Origin: Agarivorans albus
GTDB taxonomy: Bacteria > Pseudomonadota > Gammaproteobacteria > Enterobacterales > Celerinatantimonadaceae
DNA: 24,000 nucleotides
Direction of reading: 5' to 3'
Assembly: GCF_019670105.1 (NCBI RefSeq)
Contig: NZ_AP023032.1
Location: 1,148,972 to 1,172,971 of the forward strand
Shown: piece after piece, positions 3,577 through 24,000 of the stretch
Numbering within the stretch: the first letter of the stretch is position 1
How the letters are laid out: every line of letters starts with the position of its first letter
Program-made: the position numbers and the translations under genes
The notes under the pieces: model-generated
Told to the model about the DNA's origin: nothing
The model's database searches: none
Seen by the model: the letters and a program-made list of their open reading frames with translations, nothing else

Positions 3577-4989
3577 TTATTTCGCTCGCTTAATGCCAAT
3601 ATCTTGGTAGTTAACTTGGCTAATGGCTAAACCCTGCCAGTTATCAAAGGCTCTAGCTTGGCTTGTTTTAGCTTGATAAAAATATGGTTGGCGTAAAGCG
3701 GCTTGTTCTGCAGGCATGGCAAAGTATAAACGGGCACTTTCGCCATTTAGTTGAGCGCTAGTGAGATAGGCGACGAGTGCATGCTCGAGCGCGTGGTAAT
3801 CACTTTTCCAAAGATGAATTTTGAGCCCCTGATTGGCAACCGGATAGGTGCCGCCATCTTCGGCGATAAAACGTTCAAACCATTGTGGATAGGTATTGGC
3901 TAGGTAACGTTTAGCCTTAGGTTCGACTAAAGCTAGGCTTGCCGCTGCTTGGTCTAGTTCTGCATATTCCCACCAAATAGCTGGAGCGCCATTGGGCAGG
4001 CGACGCCATCCGCCTTCGCCTTGTTCAATAAAGGCGGCTTGCAAGGTGGCCTGAAGGCCTTGTTTGCTTTGGCTAACAAGTTGCTGTTGGCCTAAATACT
4101 CGGCGGCTAACCAACTCATCCACCAAGATTTAGCCGTGTGACCAAAATCATTATGCCGAGCAGAGTCCGGTTGGTAATTATCGCCATGCTTGGTTCCCCA
4201 AAAACGAAAATCATCGGGGCGCAAAAACTGCTGCGTGATGGTGTTAAGCAGTTTAGAAAGATCATTATCCCACTGGCTTTTGTGAGGTTCTGGTAGTAAT
4301 GGCGATATTAGCAACATATAGGCGTTTATTTGGTCGAGTTGCGCCACAAGCTCAACTTCTTCTCCAGTACCGTTGGTGGATGCCGCATTTACCCAGCGCA
4401 AGCGCTGTTGTTGCTCGTCCCAATATTTATCAAATATGTAATCTTTAACTTTTAGTAAGTCATTGAGTACTGCTTTATCGCCAGTTAAGTAGTAGTAAAA
4501 GGCCATGCCTAATTGAGCGTAGGCAAGGTCTTGAGTGGTACGTTGTTTAGCTGAAAATTTTGATTGTCCGTTTTCGGTCACACTCACTACCGAGCCTTGC
4601 TCTTCTAATAAATGCGTGCGCAAATAGTCAACGCCAGCCTTGGCGAGTTGCAAGGCCTGTTTATCACCGGTGAGGTGAAAGATCACTCCGTAAACAAAGG
4701 TGTGCCTAGCCTGCATGCGGGTGTAGCTTTCTCCTAAATGGGGTTTCATCCAGCTGGGAGCTGCGTTGAGTTCATAACAGGGGCTAGCTTGAGTAAAAGC
4801 TGAGCCGTCGTTACAACGAAAAGTTGGAAAGTTACCCATCGGAGAGCCATGAGCATCTTGGTGTAACCAAAAAGGAGCCAGCTCGTTTTCTACGCTATCA
4901 AGCCAGCGTTGGGCAGAAGGGATTTGCAAATCGCCCGCTTGGGCATTGCCGTTAGCAATTAAACACACACTGAGTAATACTCGTTTCAC
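3577..4989 (-). CDS. Secreted N-acylglucosamine 2-epimerase (AGE) superfamily (alpha/alpha)6-barrel protein
   Basis: GTG start, with GAGGAA 7 nt upstream. Signal peptide (M)KRVLLSVCLIANGNAQA. AGE-like motif series: RMQARHTFVYGVIFHLTGD, DLAYAQLGMAFYYYLTGD, FGHTAKSWWMSWL, IWWEYAELDQAA, LWKSDYHALEHAL. Confidence 0.55.
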   Translation of the reverse strand: MKRVLLSVCLIANGNAQAGDLQIPSAQRWLDSVENELAPFWLHQDAHGSPMGNFPTFRCNDGSAFTQASPCYELNAAPSWMKPHLGESYTRMQARHTFVYGVIFHLTGDKQALQLAKAGVDYLRTHLLEEQGSVVSVTENGQSKFSAKQRTTQDLAYAQLGMAFYYYLTGDKAVLNDLLKVKDYIFDKYWDEQQQRLRWVNAASTNGTGEEVELVAQLDQINAYMLLISPLLPEPHKSQWDNDLSKLLNTITQQFLRPDDFRFWGTKHGDNYQPDSARHNDFGHTAKSWWMSWLAAEYLGQQQLVSQSKQGLQATLQAAFIEQGEGGWRRLPNGAPAIWWEYAELDQAAASLALVEPKAKRYLANTYPQWFERFIAEDGGTYPVANQGLKIHLWKSDYHALEHALVAYLTSAQLNGESARLYFAMPAEQAALRQPYFYQAKTSQARAFDNWQGLAISQVNYQDIGIKRAK

Positions 4990-16400: not shown

Positions 16401-18887
16401 ACCAATATTTATTGTGATATTAGCCAGCGCGATGAATGCTACAGAAAATTGGCCTTGGGAGAGGAAGTTGCCAATGTTGAAATGAGTTTTAAACGCACCG
16501 ATGGTAGCCAATTTATCGGCTCGGCTAACTACTTAAATACCCAGTTTAAAGACCAACCCGCGGTATTGTTTTGGTGTTACGACATTAGTGAGCTTAAAGA
16601 TCTGAATAATCAGCTGAGCTTGGCCATTGATGAAGCCGACAATGCCAACAAAGCTAAATCTGATTTCTTGGCTAATATGAGCCATGAGATTCGTACCCCA
16701 ATGAATGCCATTATTGGCATGACTCACTTGGCGCTAAATGCGGAGCTGGACCGCAAAACTCGCGGTTATCTAAATAAAGTTTCTCATGCTGCGGCTTCGT
16801 TGCTTGGGATCATTAACGATATTCTCGATTTCTCGAAAATTGAAGCTGGCAAACTAGACATGGAATGCTTAGATATTAGCATTCAAGATATCTTGCAAAA
16901 CCAGCTCAACTTAATCGAATTAAAGGCTCAAGATAAAGGGGTTGAGGTGCTCACAGTGGTCGAGCCTTCGGTGCCGCATAACCTAATGGGCGATCCGCTT
17001 CGCTTAGGGCAAATATTCACTAATTTGGCCAGCAATGCGATTAAGTTTACAGAGCAGGGCGAAATTGCTTTCTCAGTTAAATTATTGGAACAGCAAACTA
17101 ACCGTGCCAAATTGCAGTTTTCGGTGCGCGACACCGGCATTGGTATCTCGCCCGAGCAACAACAAAAACTGTTTCAATCATTCACTCAGGCAGATGCCTC
17201 TACCACCCGTCAATACGGCGGAACCGGCTTAGGTTTAACTATTTGTAAGCGATTAGTTGAGCTAATGGAAGGTGAGATTTGGCTAGAGAGCGCCTTGGGT
17301 GAGGGCACCGAGTTCTTGTTTACTGCATGGTTTAAGCTAAACCATGAACGGCCTGCCATGCGCAGTGCAATTAGCCCAACTAGCTTAGAAAATATGTGCA
17401 TTTTAGTGGTGGATGATAATGAAAGTGCGGCTGAAATTATGGCCTCTATCGTGTCGTCTTTTAGCCCAGAAGTTAGCGTGGTACATGCTGGCTCAGAAGC
17501 GCAGGCCTTAGTGGCTAAACATCCTAACAAATTTGACGTAGCCATTGTTGATTGGAACATGCCAGATATGGACGGCGTGGCCACTTGTGAAGCAATTCGC
17601 CAAGAAGCTGGCAGTCATCCGGTTAAATTTATTATGGTGTCGGCGTATGACCATGCCCGCTTTAAAGCGCAAAGTGAAGATGCTGGCGTTAGTGCATATT
17701 TAGCTAAACCGATTACGGCTTCGGAAGTCTTTAACGCTATAGCTGAAGTAAGTGGGCGCGATGTTGCCTTGTATACGCCACTAGCCAAACTTAGCGACAA
17801 ACTTACTTTAGCTAAACAAAAGTTGCAGGGCGCACATGTGCTGTTGGTGGAAGATAACGAGTTAAATCAAGACTTAGCCATAGAGCTACTTAACAGCATA
17901 GGGGTAAGTTGCGAGTTAGCAGAAAACGGCAAGTTAGCTATAGAGAAGCTACATCAAAGTGCTTTTGATGGGGTATTGATGGATATCCAAATGCCGGTTA
18001 TGGATGGCTACACTGCCACCCAAAAGATCCGAGAGTTTGATTTAGAACTGGTGATTATCGCCATGACCGCGAACGCCATGAGTGGCGATAGAGAGCGAGT
18101 GATAAGCGCTGGCATGAACGATTACATCAGCAAACCGATAGATGTTGAGGCTATGATAAACACCATGGCCGAGTGGATTAGCGCTTCTGGTTTGCAACAA
18201 ACAGCACCTGTTAGTGCGCAGGAAGAACCAGTGCCTTCGGGGATTACCGAAGGCTTAAACCCCGAAATTATCGATCAGGCTGCTGGTTTAGCAACGTGTA
18301 ATGGCAACGCCAACTTATACTTCAAACTGCTGAATAAATTTAGTATTAACCAGCGCAGTTTTGCGGAACAGTTTGAGCAAGCTTGCGGTGAATCAGACTG
18401 GGTATTAGCTACTCGTTTAATACATACTCTAAAAGGCAACGCTGGGAATATTGGAGCGCTTTCATTGCAAGCTGCAGCTGCCGAACTTGAAGCAGTTGCT
18501 GCCAGTATCTTGTCGGCAGAGGGCAGCAACAGTTATAAAAATAGTCACGAACGGATCCAGTCTTTATTGTCAGATGTAAGTACTTTGCTAGAGCTGGTCT
18601 TTCAAGAAATAGACTTGTTATTGCCTAAAGGCACTACTCATGAGATAGCTGAAGACGATAGCCAACAACAAAATAATCTGCAGCAACTTAAGGCTGAACT
18701 GAGCACCCTAGAAGCACAGTTGGAAGAGTGCGACGTTGATGCAGTAGAGCGAATCGATGAACTAGCAGAGCTTGCTTTTCCGCCCGAGGTGAAAAAGCAA
18801 TTGTTGGGCATTAACAAGGCCGCAGCTGAGTATGACTTTGAAGCTGCGAGTGAGCAGTTGCAGAGCTTAAAGTCACTTCTCAGTTGA
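13494..18887 (+). CDS. Hybrid sensor histidine kinase, BvgS/EvgS-like: signal peptide, 3 x SBP_bac_3 (VFT) periplasmic domains, TM, PAS, HisKA/HATPase, REC, REC, Hpt
   Basis: - Signal peptide: MLSRITAAIGAILSLLLTVNAWS.
- SBP_bac_3-like blocks at roughly aa 30-265, 272-495 and 640-875. The first and third start with the typical FTQQEKQWIAEN / FTKEELAWMADNPEV motifs.
- Single TM segment: ISMGALVLIFLTLFW (aa ~883-905).
- H-box SHEIRTPMNAIIGM (H1064, nt 16683).
- N box NLASNAIKFT, G1 DTGIGI, G2 GGTGLGLTICK.
- REC1 VVDDN...IVDWNMPDMDG (D1353)...AKPI.
- REC2 LVEDN...LMDIQMPVMDG (D1497)...SKPI.
- Hpt HTLKGNAGNIGA (H1644). Confidence 0.9.
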   Translation: MLSRITAAIGAILSLLLTVNAWSQSQVEEFTQQEKQWIAENTVVSVAPDANFYPYAFINLQGDFDGVTRSYLDVIEEISGLRFDYKLGMQWKDMLQGLKSGEFSLIPMMYLDSAKQDFVNYSHPFLLHTEYVFTQSDVPTIASVDDLAGKVVAIVEGFEQVNWLKTNFPQLKFKTYPELSHTLQAVADGEAYAAIAELSSALYIKNKLRLSNIKNNSVVLGRKNIPIHMGLAKHSPVLLSIIDKSIKKIDIATRNKIRGRWLTDSSSQQLLPGAFGFGRPPYMYDQSSEVGLELEIVREVLSSIGYQLGDIEQIPTVRAHEILSEDQSLDFSAGLVAKEDGELFYSDNIVQFHNVALTRKTDQLNITKVSQLAEFSVTAFEGASEVLGKPLAGVAKVSSSYQEYGVQEQSLEQFFSGNAQVVIADQSLLEWTIKHSGLTALLQSDFVVHDIFEQADVGYAVAFRNDYYRDIFNQALQEFKQSTDYSKLNDLYAKSDFSNQIKRASLLSDLLAPHIFNDDLKIIKHIVGVFQKNSNIKAIVVSSDSPPKVIFKAQEIDGQLKEVDVLQISHLSKLSKESYFVHNNNPDKVGEVILYFEATSSSQIGSPSIPNISRFTLLNEEQTADLRDSYERHQLSGQQINFTKEELAWMADNPEVAVAVDPSALPYEAFDEGGNYIGIVADYLQLLSVSTGLTLKPVPVESWQDSLKLIQNREVKLVSAALNNKWLELDYHPALPLVESELAYMGLERDGFFGSAEQLAGKKIGIIKGASQTRSIVNRYPDIDWQYPENTEQGFIAVADGEYHGMVDSLLVLNYLIQTRGYSQMAIAADFDREIVSTLFVIKSEPLLHSIINKAIDAVTQQQSDDITLSWVPNKLVEKVDYGLVTQISMGALVLIFLTLFWNRKLASHIKARELAEQKIQQREQLLFDMLNAAPIGVAIVQNNKTVFSNKTCRDMFGVAANELDDFQVTNIYCDISQRDECYRKLALGEEVANVEMSFKRTDGSQFIGSANYLNTQFKDQPAVLFWCYDISELKDLNNQLSLAIDEADNANKAKSDFLANMSHEIRTPMNAIIGMTHLALNAELDRKTRGYLNKVSHAAASLLGIINDILDFSKIEAGKLDMECLDISIQDILQNQLNLIELKAQDKGVEVLTVVEPSVPHNLMGDPLRLGQIFTNLASNAIKFTEQGEIAFSVKLLEQQTNRAKLQFSVRDTGIGISPEQQQKLFQSFTQADASTTRQYGGTGLGLTICKRLVELMEGEIWLESALGEGTEFLFTAWFKLNHERPAMRSAISPTSLENMCILVVDDNESAAEIMASIVSSFSPEVSVVHAGSEAQALVAKHPNKFDVAIVDWNMPDMDGVATCEAIRQEAGSHPVKFIMVSAYDHARFKAQSEDAGVSAYLAKPITASEVFNAIAEVSGRDVALYTPLAKLSDKLTLAKQKLQGAHVLLVEDNELNQDLAIELLNSIGVSCELAENGKLAIEKLHQSAFDGVLMDIQMPVMDGYTATQKIREFDLELVIIAMTANAMSGDRERVISAGMNDYISKPIDVEAMINTMAEWISASGLQQTAPVSAQEEPVPSGITEGLNPEIIDQAAGLATCNGNANLYFKLLNKFSINQRSFAEQFEQACGESDWVLATRLIHTLKGNAGNIGALSLQAAAAELEAVAASILSAEGSNSYKNSHERIQSLLSDVSTLLELVFQEIDLLLPKGTTHEIAEDDSQQQNNLQQLKAELSTLEAQLEECDVDAVERIDELAELAFPPEVKKQLLGINKAAAEYDFEAASEQLQSLKSLLS

Positions 18888-20589: not shown

Positions 20590-20720
20590 GGAAAAACCTC
20601 AGCAAAAAATAGAGCGCTACTTTGGCAGGTTTTAGCAAAGAATTAAATACCAAACTTAGCTGTTGTATGCTGAACAACTAAGATGGTTTGTAAAGCCGAT
20701 TCGACGCAAGGAGTAAAGCC

Positions 20721-21080
20721 GTGGATTACCAACAATTTAACCAGTTTTGTGGTGATTTAGCTGCCAGCACTTACATTGTGCAATGGGGCAACGCTCATGT
20801 TTGGAAAGTTGGTGGAAAAGTGTTTGCGATTGGCGGATGGGAAAAACTTAATCAGCCGGCGTTTACATTTAAAACCTCAGAACTCAATTTTGAGTTTCTC
20901 CGTGAAGAACCGGGTTATCGGCCTGCTCCCTATATGGCCTCGCGTGGTATGAAGTGGATCCAGTTATATCAAAGTGAGCCGGCTTTTGATGAGCAACTTA
21001 TATACTACCTCACTGAATCTCATCGCATTGTTTCTCTTGGCCTAACCAAAAAACTACAGAAAGAACTGGGTTTAAAATGA
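20721..21080 (+). CDS. MmcQ/YjbR family (DUF419-like) protein
   Basis: GTG start, with AAGGAG 7 nt upstream. The pattern W.......VWKVGGKVFAI....(~10)...FTFK......FL.....GYRPAPYMASRGMKWIQL is typical of the YjbR fold family as I recall it. Confidence 0.6.
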   Translation: MDYQQFNQFCGDLAASTYIVQWGNAHVWKVGGKVFAIGGWEKLNQPAFTFKTSELNFEFLREEPGYRPAPYMASRGMKWIQLYQSEPAFDEQLIYYLTESHRIVSLGLTKKLQKELGLK

Positions 21081-21252
21081 ATGTTTACATGATGTCGATT
21101 TTATTAGTCACACTGAAATTCTTTCACATGTTATTTATTTGTTAATAATCGGGGTGGCTTCGATTTTTATTCTCAATTTTTCGAATTTATTTGTTAAAAA
21201 TAAAATTATTACTTGTCTTTAGGTGTTTAGTTATTTCTGTTTATTTACTCTG

Positions 21253-21261
21253 TGATATATT
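21253..21261 (+). promoter_or_regulatory. Candidate extended -10 promoter element (TGATATATT) for the lipoprotein operon
   Basis: TG-N-TATATT lies about 30 nt upstream of the ATG at 21292, within a very AT-rich 210-bp intergenic region. No convincing -35 is present. Confidence 0.3.
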
Positions 21262-21291
21262 CTCGAATTACTTAACAAACTGGATGTTTCT

Positions 21292-22266
21292 ATGAAAAGT
21301 GTACATTACCGAATAGGTTTACCTGTTATCGGCTTGCTATTTCTTTCTGCATGTTCTACTCAATCCCCGCAAGTTGAATCTAAAGAGAATCAGAATTCTC
21401 AACAGCAGCAGCTTGAAGCTCAAAACCAAACTTTGGCTAAGCCTGCACAGCCTTTACTTAAAAGGAAAGTGGCATTAGGTCGTATAACTAATGAAACCAT
21501 TTATGGTAAGAGTTTGCTGAGAGACTCAAAGGGTGATGTGTTAGGTAAGCAAGTAACTGATATGTTGTCAAAGGCTTTAACAGAATCAGGTAGTTATTTG
21601 GTATTTGAACGCCCCGACATCGAACGTTTAAAGGATGAAGCAGAACTCACAGGTGAAAGTATTGAATTAATCGGCGTTGATACGCTGATTATTGGCTCTT
21701 TAACTGAATTTGGCAGAAAAACAGAGGGCGAGTCGGGGTTCTTATCTTCTACAAAGACTCAAGTTGCTCACGCGAAAGTTGACTTACGCTTAGTTGATTC
21801 GAAAACAGGTCATGTCTATCACTCACTTTCTGGTGCCGGCCAAGCTTCTACCGAATCAGCTTCAGTTGCAGGTTTTGGCTCTAAAGCTTCCTATGATGGA
21901 ACACTCAATGATTTAGCTATCTCAAATGCAATCTCTGACGCCGTAAATAAATTGACTGCTCAAATTCAAAAAAGGCCTTGGAAAACAGATATTTTAGCGA
22001 TTGAAGATGGCTTAGTTTATGTCAGCGGCGGTAAAAGCCAGGGGGTTCGTGAAGACATGGAGTTCAGCATTGTTACAAAAGGCAAGGAAATAAAGTCTAA
22101 GCAAACAGGGTTCCTAGTAACGCTCCCAGGTAAGAAAATTGGGGCCATTAAAGTTATTCAATTATTCGGAGAAAGCGAAACCAATGAGGGTGCAATAGCA
22201 GAGGTCGTTGAAGGCTCGATTGATAATTTAGATATTACTACTGTTGATATCATGGAGATAAAGTAA
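21292..22266 (+). CDS. CsgG/HfaB-family outer-membrane lipoprotein with an extra C-terminal beta-rich domain
   Basis: Lipobox LLFLSAC with Ser at +2, followed by a Gln-rich linker. The core KVALGRITNET...LGKQVTDMLSKALTESGSYLVFERPDIERLKDEAEL...TLIIGSLTEFGRK...AHAKVDLRLVDSKTGHV is colinear with E. coli CsgG (VYNIQDETG...MLVTALKDSRWFIPLER...EGSIIGYE...IAVNLRVVNVSTGEIL). Confidence 0.65.
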   Translation: MKSVHYRIGLPVIGLLFLSACSTQSPQVESKENQNSQQQQLEAQNQTLAKPAQPLLKRKVALGRITNETIYGKSLLRDSKGDVLGKQVTDMLSKALTESGSYLVFERPDIERLKDEAELTGESIELIGVDTLIIGSLTEFGRKTEGESGFLSSTKTQVAHAKVDLRLVDSKTGHVYHSLSGAGQASTESASVAGFGSKASYDGTLNDLAISNAISDAVNKLTAQIQKRPWKTDILAIEDGLVYVSGGKSQGVREDMEFSIVTKGKEIKSKQTGFLVTLPGKKIGAIKVIQLFGESETNEGAIAEVVEGSIDNLDITTVDIMEIK

Positions 22267-22592
22267 TGATGAAAGCTACCGTATTTGTTTTATTGTTTAG
22301 TTTTCTTGGTTTAGCTGGTTGTGTTCAAATGCCTACTACTACGAGCACAACTGTTGACAACCGTCCGCAGTTATCTTTTATTGCTGCGTCGGATAATGTT
22401 GTTCTTAGCGAGTATAGAGTGTGGGTTGATGGTTTGGAATCTGGATTGGCTTCCGATTATAAGGCGGACTCAGCAGCGCTGCGACTATTGCCGGGTTCCC
22501 ATGTTATTGAGCTAAAAAGAAATGAAGAGGTGATCCTTAAAGAAAAGATTTACCTAGGTGATGGAGTAACTAAACAGGTGGTTGTTAACTAA
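22266..22592 (+). CDS. Small lipoprotein, PEGA-like beta-sandwich
   Basis: Lipobox LGLAGC with Val at +2. The start overlaps the upstream stop (TAATG). GGAG lies 8 nt upstream. YRVWVDGLESGL....ALRLLPGSHVIELKRNEEVILKEKIYLGDGVTKQVVV resembles the PEGA-domain pattern. Confidence 0.5.
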   Translation: MMKATVFVLLFSFLGLAGCVQMPTTTSTTVDNRPQLSFIAASDNVVLSEYRVWVDGLESGLASDYKADSAALRLLPGSHVIELKRNEEVILKEKIYLGDGVTKQVVVN

Positions 22593-22960
22593 TGAAGTTT
22601 CTTAAACTAGGCGTGATTTTGATTACAACAATTCTTGCTGGCTGCGCATCTACACAAACGACCTTATATGATTGGGGAGGGTATGATGAAGGTATATATG
22701 AGTACTACTATGATCCAGTGGAAGCTGCTAGTTTTCCTGAGTTGGTTGAAGCTCACATTGTCCAGCTTGAAAGTAATAGTCAAACACCTGCTCCTGGCCT
22801 TTATGCGGAGGTTGGAACGTTTAAATTAAAGACGGGCGATATTGAAAACGCAATTACTTATTATAAAAAAGAAGCTTCGACTTGGCCGGAGAGTAAAGCG
22901 TTGATGGATGCTATTGTTCAAAACTTAGAAAGACAAACTGATACAGAAGAGAAAAACTAA
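22592..22960 (+). CDS. DUF4810-like lipoprotein
   Basis: Lipobox TILAGC with Ala at +2. TAATG overlap with the upstream gene. LYDWGGYDEGIYEYYYDP...APGLYAEVGTFKLKTGDIENAITYYKKEASTWPES matches my recollection of DUF4810 (COG4259). Confidence 0.65.
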   Translation: MKFLKLGVILITTILAGCASTQTTLYDWGGYDEGIYEYYYDPVEAASFPELVEAHIVQLESNSQTPAPGLYAEVGTFKLKTGDIENAITYYKKEASTWPESKALMDAIVQNLERQTDTEEKN

Positions 22961-22961
22961 A

Positions 22962-23597
22962 ATGTTTAAAAGAATAATTCCATTTGTCATTCTTATTTTC
23001 GTTAGTGCTTGTCAAACTACTCCAGAAGTTACACAAGAGTTTGATCTTGGAGATCCAAGTTCGATTTTGATTTTACCTGTAGTAAATCATAGCGTAGATG
23101 TAAATGCTCCACTGTCTGTATACAGCTCATTGCCAGTAATGTTAGCTGAGAAAGGTTATTACATATTTCCTATCAATACAGTTAAAACTATATTGGAGTA
23201 TGAAGGACTATACGAAGCAGAAGAGATCCATCAGTTACCTAGCAATACTATTGCTGAAATGTTTGATGCTGACAGTGTTTTGTATGTAACCATCAATCAG
23301 TGGGATACGACTTACTTGTTGCTTGCTAGCACCACCATTGTTGATATTTCCTATGAAATTAGAGGGCGTCAAGGAGAGGTTCTTTGGCAAGCTGATAAGC
23401 ATATGGAATATACACCACAAAACTCTTCTACAGGAAACGCTTTAGCTGACTTAATAGGTGCAGTTATTACGGCGAGCATAAATAGAGCCGCGCCTGATTA
23501 CATGCCTTTAACTCGAACCGCCAATTATCAGGTTTTTTATTCTGACGCAGCTACATACTTACCTAGTGGTCCCTATTTAGTTGATGTAGCAAAGTAG
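22962..23597 (+). CDS. DUF799 (GNA1162-like) lipoprotein
   Basis: Lipobox IFVSAC with Gln at +2. The start is 1 nt after the upstream stop. SILILPVVNHSVDVNAP...LAEKGYYIFPI...MFDADSVLYVTINQWDTTYLLLASTTIVDISYEI...GEVLWQ...YLPSGPY matches the DUF799/COG4380 pattern. Confidence 0.7.
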   Translation: MFKRIIPFVILIFVSACQTTPEVTQEFDLGDPSSILILPVVNHSVDVNAPLSVYSSLPVMLAEKGYYIFPINTVKTILEYEGLYEAEEIHQLPSNTIAEMFDADSVLYVTINQWDTTYLLLASTTIVDISYEIRGRQGEVLWQADKHMEYTPQNSSTGNALADLIGAVITASINRAAPDYMPLTRTANYQVFYSDAATYLPSGPYLVDVAK

Positions 23598-23607
23598 TAT
23601 ATTTACA

Positions 23608-23650
23608 AGGTGTATAAGCGACTAGTTCGCTATACACCTAATATGAATTT
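23608..23650 (+). terminator. Terminator of the lipoprotein operon
   Basis: Stem AGGTGTATAAGCGA (23608-23621) pairs with TCGCTATACACCT (23627-23639): 13 bp with a 1-nt bulge and loop CTAGT. A short T-run (GAATTTTT) follows. Confidence 0.65.
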
Positions 23651-23729
23651 TTAAAAAGTTATTTATATCAATGGTTTAATTTCTTCCTGATATATGCTCT
23701 AGCTTTTGTTCCCTACTCAAAGAACATCT

Positions 23730-24000
23730 ATGCAGTATCTATTGTCGACAACCCTATTGTGGGCTTTTTCTTTTAGTTTAATTGGCGTGTATTTAGCTGG
23801 CCAAGTAGACGCGTGGTTTTCGGTGTTAATGAGAGTTGCACTGGCAACACTGGTCTTTCTACCGTTTTTGAAACCTAAACAAGTTAGCCGAAGCTTAGCT
23901 TTAAAACTAATGTTGGTGGGAGCTATTCAACTAGGTTGCATGTATGGCTTTTATTATCAGTCATTCTTGTTCTTGTCGGTTCCTGAAGTATTGCTGTTTA
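23730..24000 (+). CDS. EamA/DMT-superfamily transporter, N-terminal part (runs off the right edge)
   Basis: This ORF is not in the supplied track because it has no stop inside the window. From ATG 23730 there are 90 open codons: MQYLLSTTLLWAFSFSLIGVYLAGQVDAWFSVLMRVALATLVFLPFLKPK...LVGAIQLGCMYGFYYQSFLFLS. The hydrophobic helices and the WAFSF/R..LA.L.F.PF pattern are typical of EamA repeats. The RBS is weak. Confidence 0.55.
   Translation, partial: MQYLLSTTLLWAFSFSLIGVYLAGQVDAWFSVLMRVALATLVFLPFLKPKQVSRSLALKLMLVGAIQLGCMYGFYYQSFLFLSVPEVLLF

Follow-up and report, generated by a model that had tools for sequence, protein, structure and literature searches.

A 24,000-nucleotide stretch of the Agarivorans albus genome (contig NZ_AP023032.1, positions 1,148,972 to 1,172,971 of the forward strand; the whole stretch is called the window here) carries an operon of four lipoprotein genes, which encode a CsgG-like protein (P1), a small β-sandwich protein (P2), a DUF4810 protein (P3), and a GNA1162/DUF799 protein (P4). 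Comparison with related loci shows that this family splits into a three-gene class and a four-gene class and that P2 and the C-terminal domain of P1 are gained or lost together. Within the four-gene class the window locus is unexceptional. In the literature that could be searched, no detailed description was found of this class, of its long FlgT-like subunit, or of the way P2 and the P1 C-terminal domain go together. The reading of function that we favor, and that we regard as evenly balanced between right and wrong, is that the four proteins may form an outer-membrane-anchored periplasmic ring complex that aids the export or anchoring of surface polymers.

To define the classes, 163 related loci were compared. 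A scan limited to a single genome for each species gave 80 loci with a long CsgG-like subunit, which together with three loci fetched earlier make up the 83 long-type (four-gene) loci, and a metagenome scan seeded with short CsgG-like proteins returned the 80 short-type (three-gene) loci. The order P1-P2-P3-P4 is intact in 79 of the 83 long-type loci, Gamma- and Betaproteobacteria included; this count contains three loci that print as P1-P3-P2-P4, which we attribute to over-long starts of the open reading frames (ORFs). Three of the four non-intact loci lack only P4, and at least two of these run off the contig. The median distance from the upstream stop codon to the next lipobox cysteine is 14 to 21 codons across related loci, which accommodates a signal peptide only, so the genes abut or overlap nearly everywhere. 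Because the order is so widely kept and the lipoboxes are conserved, the four-lipoprotein arrangement is not due to chance. A long P1 followed by unrelated ORFs of 86 and 296 amino acids rather than by P2-P3-P4 was seen in a single related genome locus (L019, 5940-7200); its source is a metagenome-assembled genome, so that a misassembly and a true orphan are both possible.

P2 lies downstream of P1 in 82 of the 83 long-type loci and in none of the 80 short-type loci, 68 of which read P1-P3-P4. The short-type CsgG-like proteins stop at position 236 to 239 of the 331-position model, apart from one truncated fragment. Likewise, the three-gene cassettes of Neisseria (NMB1164-NMB1162), Ralstonia, and Aeromonas share with the window operon the order CsgG-like, DUF4810, DUF799 and the tight packing, but their CsgG-like protein is short (223 to 229 amino acids), ending where the P1 C-terminal domain starts, and a homologue of P2 was not found there. 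The long type has both P2 and the P1 C-terminal domain, 80 of 80 short-type loci have neither, and this co-occurrence leads us to predict physical contact between them. The initial annotation, which was made from the window sequence without database searches, took P2 for a possible lineage-specific addition. It is rather a class-defining subunit, present in at least 80 species, Gamma- and Betaproteobacteria among them, and the gene-neighborhood comparison shows that within the four-gene class this 108-amino-acid lipoprotein does co-travel with the other three.

Conservation within both classes is high. Long-type P1 proteins are 53 to 60% identical between Gamma- and Betaproteobacteria, and the short CsgG-like lipoprotein is 65 to 72% identical between Neisseria, Aeromonas, and Ralstonia (L084, L085, and L086), a level of identity across distant hosts that points to either strong constraint or horizontal spread. 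The CsgG-like subunit is represented by more than 2,300 clusters at 90% identity. In the Neisseria gonorrhoeae locus (L084, 3623-3992), the DUF4810 match is split over two ORFs that overlap and lie in different frames (3623-3913 and 3804-3992), which suggests a frameshift or a phase-variable tract in this gene of this gonococcal strain.

P1 matches the Pfam CsgG family (PF03783) over residues 52-231 with an E value of 3.8e-36 and 124.8 bits, against a gathering cutoff of 20.8. It consists of a conserved linker (residues 22-56), an α/β domain of the CsgG/FlgT fold (~57-228), and a C-terminal β-domain (~231-324), for which a Pfam search with the domain alone gave no match. A conserved loop (67-87) occupies the position of the CsgG constriction loop ("C-loop" equivalent) and has the same length. 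At the sequence level the relation to CsgG itself is remote: a phmmer search of the PDB with P1 returned no CsgG chain at an E value of ≤1, and a profile built from 81 P1 sequences reached E. coli CsgG with an E value of 0.017. Membership in the LpoB family (NCBIfam TIGR02722) was rejected, the score being 15.9 bits against a cutoff of 110.55.

An AlphaFold2 (AF2) monomer model of P1 (mean predicted local distance difference test score [pLDDT], 81) places it closest to the flagellar protein FlgT. The top Foldseek matches are to the FlgT/LPHT ring (8Z5N and 3W1E; E ~1e-12, 290 to 304 aligned columns, TM-score of 0.46 to 0.48), followed by CsgG, including its membrane form (E ~2e-10, ~200 columns), and then by HpaA and by lipoproteins of the ring or plug kind (GNA1162, PelC, PqiC-like, and LptE-like). 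Vibrio FlgT, the best full-length match, has the same layout as P1, with a β-domain at the C terminus after an α/β middle domain. In the polar flagellar motor it makes up the H-ring, which lies beneath the outer membrane beside the lipoprotein rings FlgO and FlgP. Unlike P1, however, FlgT is no lipoprotein, possesses an additional N-terminal domain, and works in a flagellar context, and P1 has no match to the FlgT Pfam family. E. coli CsgG, of the type VIII secretion system, shares with P1 the Pfam family, the α/β fold, the N-terminal lipid anchor, and the loop at the constriction position.

Sequence searches with P2 gave no match in Pfam or NCBIfam and no meaningful one in the PDB. Its AF2 model is a β-sandwich (pLDDT, 93) whose best Foldseek matches are transthyretin-like domains, carboxypeptidase-regulatory domains, and the C-domain of the PapC usher. 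"PEGA-like," the initial label for P2, is therefore apt as a description of the fold but does not hold as family membership: a hidden Markov model (HMM) search with PEGA (PF08308) gave no match to P2 at E values of ≤1 or ≤10, and weak PEGA matches occur in 12 of 100 P2 relatives, the best at 4.9e-5. A profile built from a few close P2 relatives retrieved 364 cluster representatives, mostly proteins of 100 to 115 amino acids; the remaining matches are repeated domains in giant proteins of the Ig-like Pfam family Big_13. These matches make P2 look like a relative of adhesin-type Ig repeats that has just one domain. Five of the giants (P0130, P0159, P0165, P0215, and P0217; 763 to 3775 amino acids) contain 8 to 12 tandem P2-profile domains, and Pfam scans of three of these (P0130, P0159, and P0165) put the Big_13 label on the repeats. 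The idea that P2 is a detached FlgT N-domain was rejected, as Foldseek of the P2 model gives no FlgT match.

P3 and P4 belong to the families first assigned to them. P3 matches DUF4810 (PF16068) with an E value of 5.4e-21 (75.4 bits; cutoff, 34.7), and P4 matches GNA1162-like/DUF799 (PF05643) with an E value of 3e-36 (125.2 bits; cutoff, 25.9), so that all three original family calls, that of CsgG included, proved correct above curated Pfam cutoffs. P3 is small and helical, with a TPR-like motif at ~70-103, a weak TPR_8 match, and matches to consensus TPR designs in the PDB down to 1.4e-6. A role for it in antiphage defense was rejected, PADLOC yielding just a chance-level Cmr5 match. P4 matches Neisseria GNA1162 (PDB 4HRV) at 7.2e-22 as a single sequence and at 1.5e-36 as a profile, and has an α/β fold of the TolB-N/PelC/LptE type; at the sequence level the P4 profile returns 4HRV alone from the PDB, with no sign of a relation to FlgO or FlgP. 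PelC (of Pel exopolysaccharide export), PqiC, and LptE resemble P1 and P4 in being outer membrane lipoproteins of a common α/β fold class, and PelC (a 12-mer) and PqiC (an 8-mer) build rings in the periplasm, the trans-membrane conduit that they serve being separate. This likeness is at the level of the fold (Foldseek E values of 1e-5 to 1e-4), and unlike in those systems, the operon has no linked PelB-like porin or MCE partner.

All four proteins are predicted to be sorted by the Lol pathway to the outer membrane. Each has a lipobox cysteine after a hydrophobic N terminus, as first noted, and the residues at the lipobox and the +2 position are LSAC|S in P1, LAGC|V in P2, LAGC|A in P3, and VSAC|Q in P4. 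None has Asp at +2, the feature from which outer membrane sorting had originally been predicted, and this is kept in the homologues: a strict motif scan of 79 to 83 homologues per protein family found a recognizable lipobox cysteine in 67 to 80 of them and Asp at +2 in none. The location is supported indirectly by the occurrence of homologues in outer membrane vesicles (OMVs) of Neisseria and Acinetobacter. GNA1162 is an antigen in meningococcal OMV vaccines, immunogenic and with a TolB/LptE-like structure (PMC6497663), and a DUF799 protein has been found in A. baumannii OMVs.

The cassette travels without fixed company. A Pfam scan of the window ORFs found no curli genes (csgA/B/C/E/F), as first observed, and no flagellar genes near the operon. 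When the flanking ORFs of all 163 loci were clustered, no conserved neighbor, cargo, or regulator gene emerged. No gene family occurs in more than 5 of the ~80 long-type flanks, and the commonest short-type neighbor, by eye a DnaE2-type polymerase present in 16 loci, was read as clade synteny. Flanking genes differ among Agarivorans, Vibrio, and Psychromonas. The lack of a conserved neighbor bears out the earlier description of the operon as self-contained. In one Vibrio sp. locus (L001, 228-1277), the region ~3.6 kb upstream of the cassette contains genes for DUF1425 and LpoB proteins; neither was seen in the other loci, and their presence is probably a coincidence.

Full-text searching for DUF4810, DUF799, COG4380, and COG4259 returned almost nothing, but the statement that no phenotype is established for these families is outdated, because deletions in A. 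baumannii UPAB1 affect poly-N-acetylglucosamine (PNAG), Cup (chaperone-usher) pili, and biofilm. In this strain an H-NS encoded on a plasmid represses a three-gene "curli-like" cluster (D1G37_12595/12600/12605) about tenfold, deletion of the csgG homologue or of the middle gene lowers Congo red binding and PNAG, and deletion of the csgG homologue also abolishes Cup pili and lowers biofilm (Benomar et al., bioRxiv 10.1101/2021.05.19.444899). The same authors describe the cluster as widespread, with "additional genes" in V. harveyi, and propose a PNAG-anchoring lipoprotein complex. This cluster, the sole family member with deletion phenotypes, resembles the window operon in encoding a CsgG/HfaB-family lipoprotein and two further lipoproteins, the last a GNA1162 homologue, in forming one operon in which curli genes are absent, and in an H-NS repression that fits the AT-rich window locus. 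It differs in having three genes and, if it is like the sampled three-gene class, would lack P2 and the P1 C-terminal domain. Co-transcription in a relative is indicated for B. thailandensis, in which BTH_I3204-3206 are listed as one operon (BTH_I3204->csgG) that is induced by oxygen limitation (PMC3966863), a case known here from that paper's gene table alone. Caulobacter HfaB, a holdfast anchor compared by description, is likewise a CsgG-family lipoprotein outside curli that is tied to polysaccharide anchoring; unlike the present proteins, it has the amyloid-like partners HfaA and HfaD, for which no genes are present here.

The best surviving alternative to a ring is the one raised at the outset, a pore, and we consider it unlikely. 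It would be a CsgG-type secretion channel (type VIII-like), with P1 as a lipidated oligomeric β-barrel, P2 to P4 as accessories in the manner of CsgE and CsgF, and a substrate encoded elsewhere. The strong Pfam match of P1, its Foldseek match to the membrane form of CsgG, the extended hairpins of its AF2 model, and the conserved loop as long as the constriction loop all favor a channel, as do the reported surface accessibility of GNA1162 in Neisseria and the removal of extracellular matrix upon loss of the A. baumannii homologue. The trans-membrane barrel of CsgG has 36 strands, and the corresponding parts of P1 are short: the anchor-to-anchor distance is 21 residues in P1 versus 27 in E. coli CsgG for the first trans-membrane region (TM1) and 26 versus 34 for the second (TM2), or 6 and 8 residues fewer. 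About 15 (TM1-equivalent) and 17 (TM2-equivalent) residues remain for the P1 hairpins, ~6 to 8 per strand. They are also polar. No aromatic residue, hence no aromatic girdle, is present in the three strands rising from the α/β core, which bear charges on both faces; their best alternating face scores -1.6 to +0.65 on the Kyte-Doolittle scale, versus 0.0 to 1.1 for CsgG. Charges at R142, K143, and E145/147 are invariant, and the tips (GFL and GFG) are hydrophobic rather than polar. The hairpin residues are close to invariant family-wide, the opposite of what is expected for lipid-facing strands. Further, the sequence relation to CsgG is marginal, no amyloid-like or other cargo gene is linked to the cassette in the 163 loci, whereas E. 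coli curli has csgA/B/C/E/F linked, P1 has an extra C-terminal β-domain, and its full-length fold is nearer to that of FlgT, which is not a pore. On sequence and a monomer model, a true trans-membrane barrel is doubtful for P1, which looks more like the non-pore ring protein FlgT than the curli channel, and the early suggestion of a pore finds no support.

In the ring complex that we favor, P1 to P4 would form an assembly of outer-membrane-anchored lipoproteins with fixed stoichiometry. P1 would oligomerize into a ring, with the "C-loop" equivalent and the short hairpins facing the membrane or a partner, and its C-terminal β-domain would project into the periplasm, where transthyretin-like P2 would bind it. 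P4, which is GNA1162/PelC-like, could supply a second ring or collar, and TPR-like P3 an adaptor. The complex would not span the outer membrane. It would be a sub-membrane ring or scaffold comparable to PelC, PqiC, and the FlgT H-ring, and would assist the export or anchoring of surface polymers (exopolysaccharide and pili) without being the conduit itself. FlgT offers a precedent: its ring is a 26-mer, and the lipidated H/L rings are anchored beneath the outer membrane with no pore (bioRxiv 10.64898/2025.12.02.691832). The AT richness of the window locus fits H-NS control; H-NS-type proteins probably silence the operon and its promoter region, both of which may stem from horizontal transfer.

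Several points weigh against this model. The picture of the four-gene class comes from sequence, monomer models, and homologues, and ring formation, the subunit contacts, the non-pore topology, and the function are what we infer. The AF2 models are of monomers only, and that of P1 contains a long three-stranded extension (131-148, 152-169, and 175-192) reminiscent of the CsgG pre-pore. The hairpin and hydropathy comparisons used an E. coli CsgG sequence of which only the first ~190 residues were confirmed by PDB alignment, and the membrane strands of CsgG are themselves only weakly hydrophobic. Given this weak hydrophobicity and the three-stranded extension, P1 may insert thinly or partially into the membrane. 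The surface exposure of GNA1162 found in Neisseria by fluorescence-activated cell sorting (FACS; as cited in PMC6497663) misfits a purely periplasmic location, at least in that genus. Finally, the A. baumannii phenotypes are pleiotropic and could reflect indirect envelope stress.

A bolder form of the ring model, which as a whole we hold to be distinctly unlikely, is that the operon encodes concentric lipoprotein rings that never cross the outer membrane, a free-standing counterpart of the Vibrio H-ring. The long CsgG-like subunit would be the evolutionary source or the sister of FlgT, P2 would dock on its C-terminal domain as the T-ring protein MotY does on the C-terminal domain of FlgT, and the ring would be a docking collar of general use to export porins or ushers of the outer membrane. 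Such a collar would explain the loss of both PNAG and chaperone-usher pili in the three-gene mutants.

The same pleiotropy is open to another explanation, one that we consider improbable, in which the lipoproteins regulate or adapt cell wall or outer membrane biogenesis by reaching peptidoglycan enzymes or the Bam, Lpt, or Lol machinery, with the matrix and pilus defects being indirect. PNAG and Cup pili need two different outer membrane machines, P1 and P4 fall into the TolB-N/LpoB/LptE fold class with weak TolB_N and LpoB matches, and HP0018 of H. pylori has been proposed to act in envelope maintenance and peptidoglycan remodeling (PMC11394524). The HP0018 homologue Cj0089 heads the cj0089-91 lipoprotein operon of C. 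jejuni, and HP1457, the orthologue of Cj0091, is described as an LpoB homologue (PMC11394524). However, the LpoB match of P1 is far under its cutoff, none of P1 to P4 has an enzyme domain or one that binds peptidoglycan, the patchy occurrence and AT richness of the cassette are unlike those of a core housekeeping locus, and no growth defect is reported for the A. baumannii mutants. Least probable of all is an adhesin or surface antigen cluster, with one or more lipoproteins flipped to the surface for direct attachment in the way claimed for Cj0091 of Campylobacter and HpaA of H. pylori: Cj0091 mutants are less adherent (PMC3100323), HpaA is among the P1 fold matches, GNA1162 is FACS-positive and immunogenic, and giant surface proteins contain the P2 domain as Ig-like repeats, but the Campylobacter and Helicobacter proteins (cj0089-91 and HP0018/HP1457) are no more than loose analogues, no surface lipoprotein transporter is linked, and the extreme conservation of short and long P1 argues against exposed surfaces under immune or phage selection.

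The CsgG-like/DUF4810/DUF799 cassette is among the more widespread Gram-negative envelope clusters still without a mechanism. It is present in pathogens, including Neisseria, Acinetobacter, Ralstonia, and V. parahaemolyticus, and its GNA1162 component is of medical relevance as an immunogenic meningococcal OMV vaccine antigen. The contact between P2 and the P1 C-terminal domain, the ring-not-barrel topology, an exopolysaccharide or pilus export phenotype, and H-NS control are all now testable.

The four genes of the window operon and their flanking signals are listed in the table below. The genes lie on one strand, and their junctions read as first annotated (TAATG for P1/P2 and P2/P3 and TAAAATG, a 1-nucleotide gap, for P3/P4); the overlap of stop and start codons implies that the four proteins are translated together. 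The AT richness that had been judged by eye was confirmed by calculation: GC content is 39.5% in the operon and 45.7 ± 1.4% in the 12 other ORFs of the window, and the upstream spacer, at 25.6%, is also lower than the other spacers in the window (31 to 43%). Inside this spacer a terminator scan placed a terminator-like hairpin of the upstream yjbR-like gene (21147-21165), and a candidate extended -10 element (TG-A-TATATT, 21253-21261) was read by eye alone; the promoter scanner called no sigma-70-like promoter on the plus strand. An upstream RNA element was rejected, as Rfam gave no match at an E value of ≤1 over 20600-24000. The "strong terminator" first assigned downstream of P4 stands as a stable hairpin (-17.7 kcal/mol; z, -3.8; none of 200 shuffles equally stable) but not fully as a terminator, since its U5 run begins ~8 nucleotides beyond the stem and the terminator scanner made no call. 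It is a probable transcript end or RNA-stabilizing hairpin.

Table. Features of the four-lipoprotein operon (window 21081-23639)
Feature	Coordinates	Strand	Details
AT-rich upstream spacer, presumed promoter region	21081..21291	+	211 bp, 25.6% GC; no Rfam match
P1, 324-amino-acid CsgG-like lipoprotein gene	21292..22266	+	ORF; lipobox LSAC, Cys21
P2, 108-amino-acid β-sandwich lipoprotein gene	22266..22592	+	ORF; lipobox LAGC, Cys19
P3, 122-amino-acid DUF4810 lipoprotein gene	22592..22960	+	ORF; lipobox LAGC, Cys18
P4, 211-amino-acid GNA1162/DUF799 lipoprotein gene	22962..23597	+	ORF; lipobox VSAC, Cys17
Stable hairpin, 13-bp stem, 10 nucleotides past the P4 stop	23608..23639	+	-17.7 kcal/mol; z, -3.8; U5 run ~8 nucleotides beyond the stem

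Proteins named from Agarivorans sp. OAG1 match P1 and P4 at 100% identity and P2 at 99%. Elsewhere in the window, a 470-amino-acid ORF on the minus strand (3577-4989) has no Pfam match at an E value of ≤1e-4. On the plus strand, two tandem paralogous genes (7567-10122 and 10443-13277) encode secreted glycoside hydrolase family 8 (GH8) enzymes of 851 and 944 amino acids. They have GH8 and Big_9/cadherin-like modules in common and differ at the C terminus (PKD plus CBM2 versus CBM6/CBM35), and from this architecture they look like a duplicated polysaccharide-degrading pair whose substrate targeting has diverged. Directly downstream lies a gene for a 1797-amino-acid hybrid sensor kinase (13494-18887, plus strand) with two periplasmic SBP_bac_3 domains, PAS, HisKA, and HATPase domains, two receiver domains, and an Hpt domain, which may be a sensor for the substrate of the GH8 pair.

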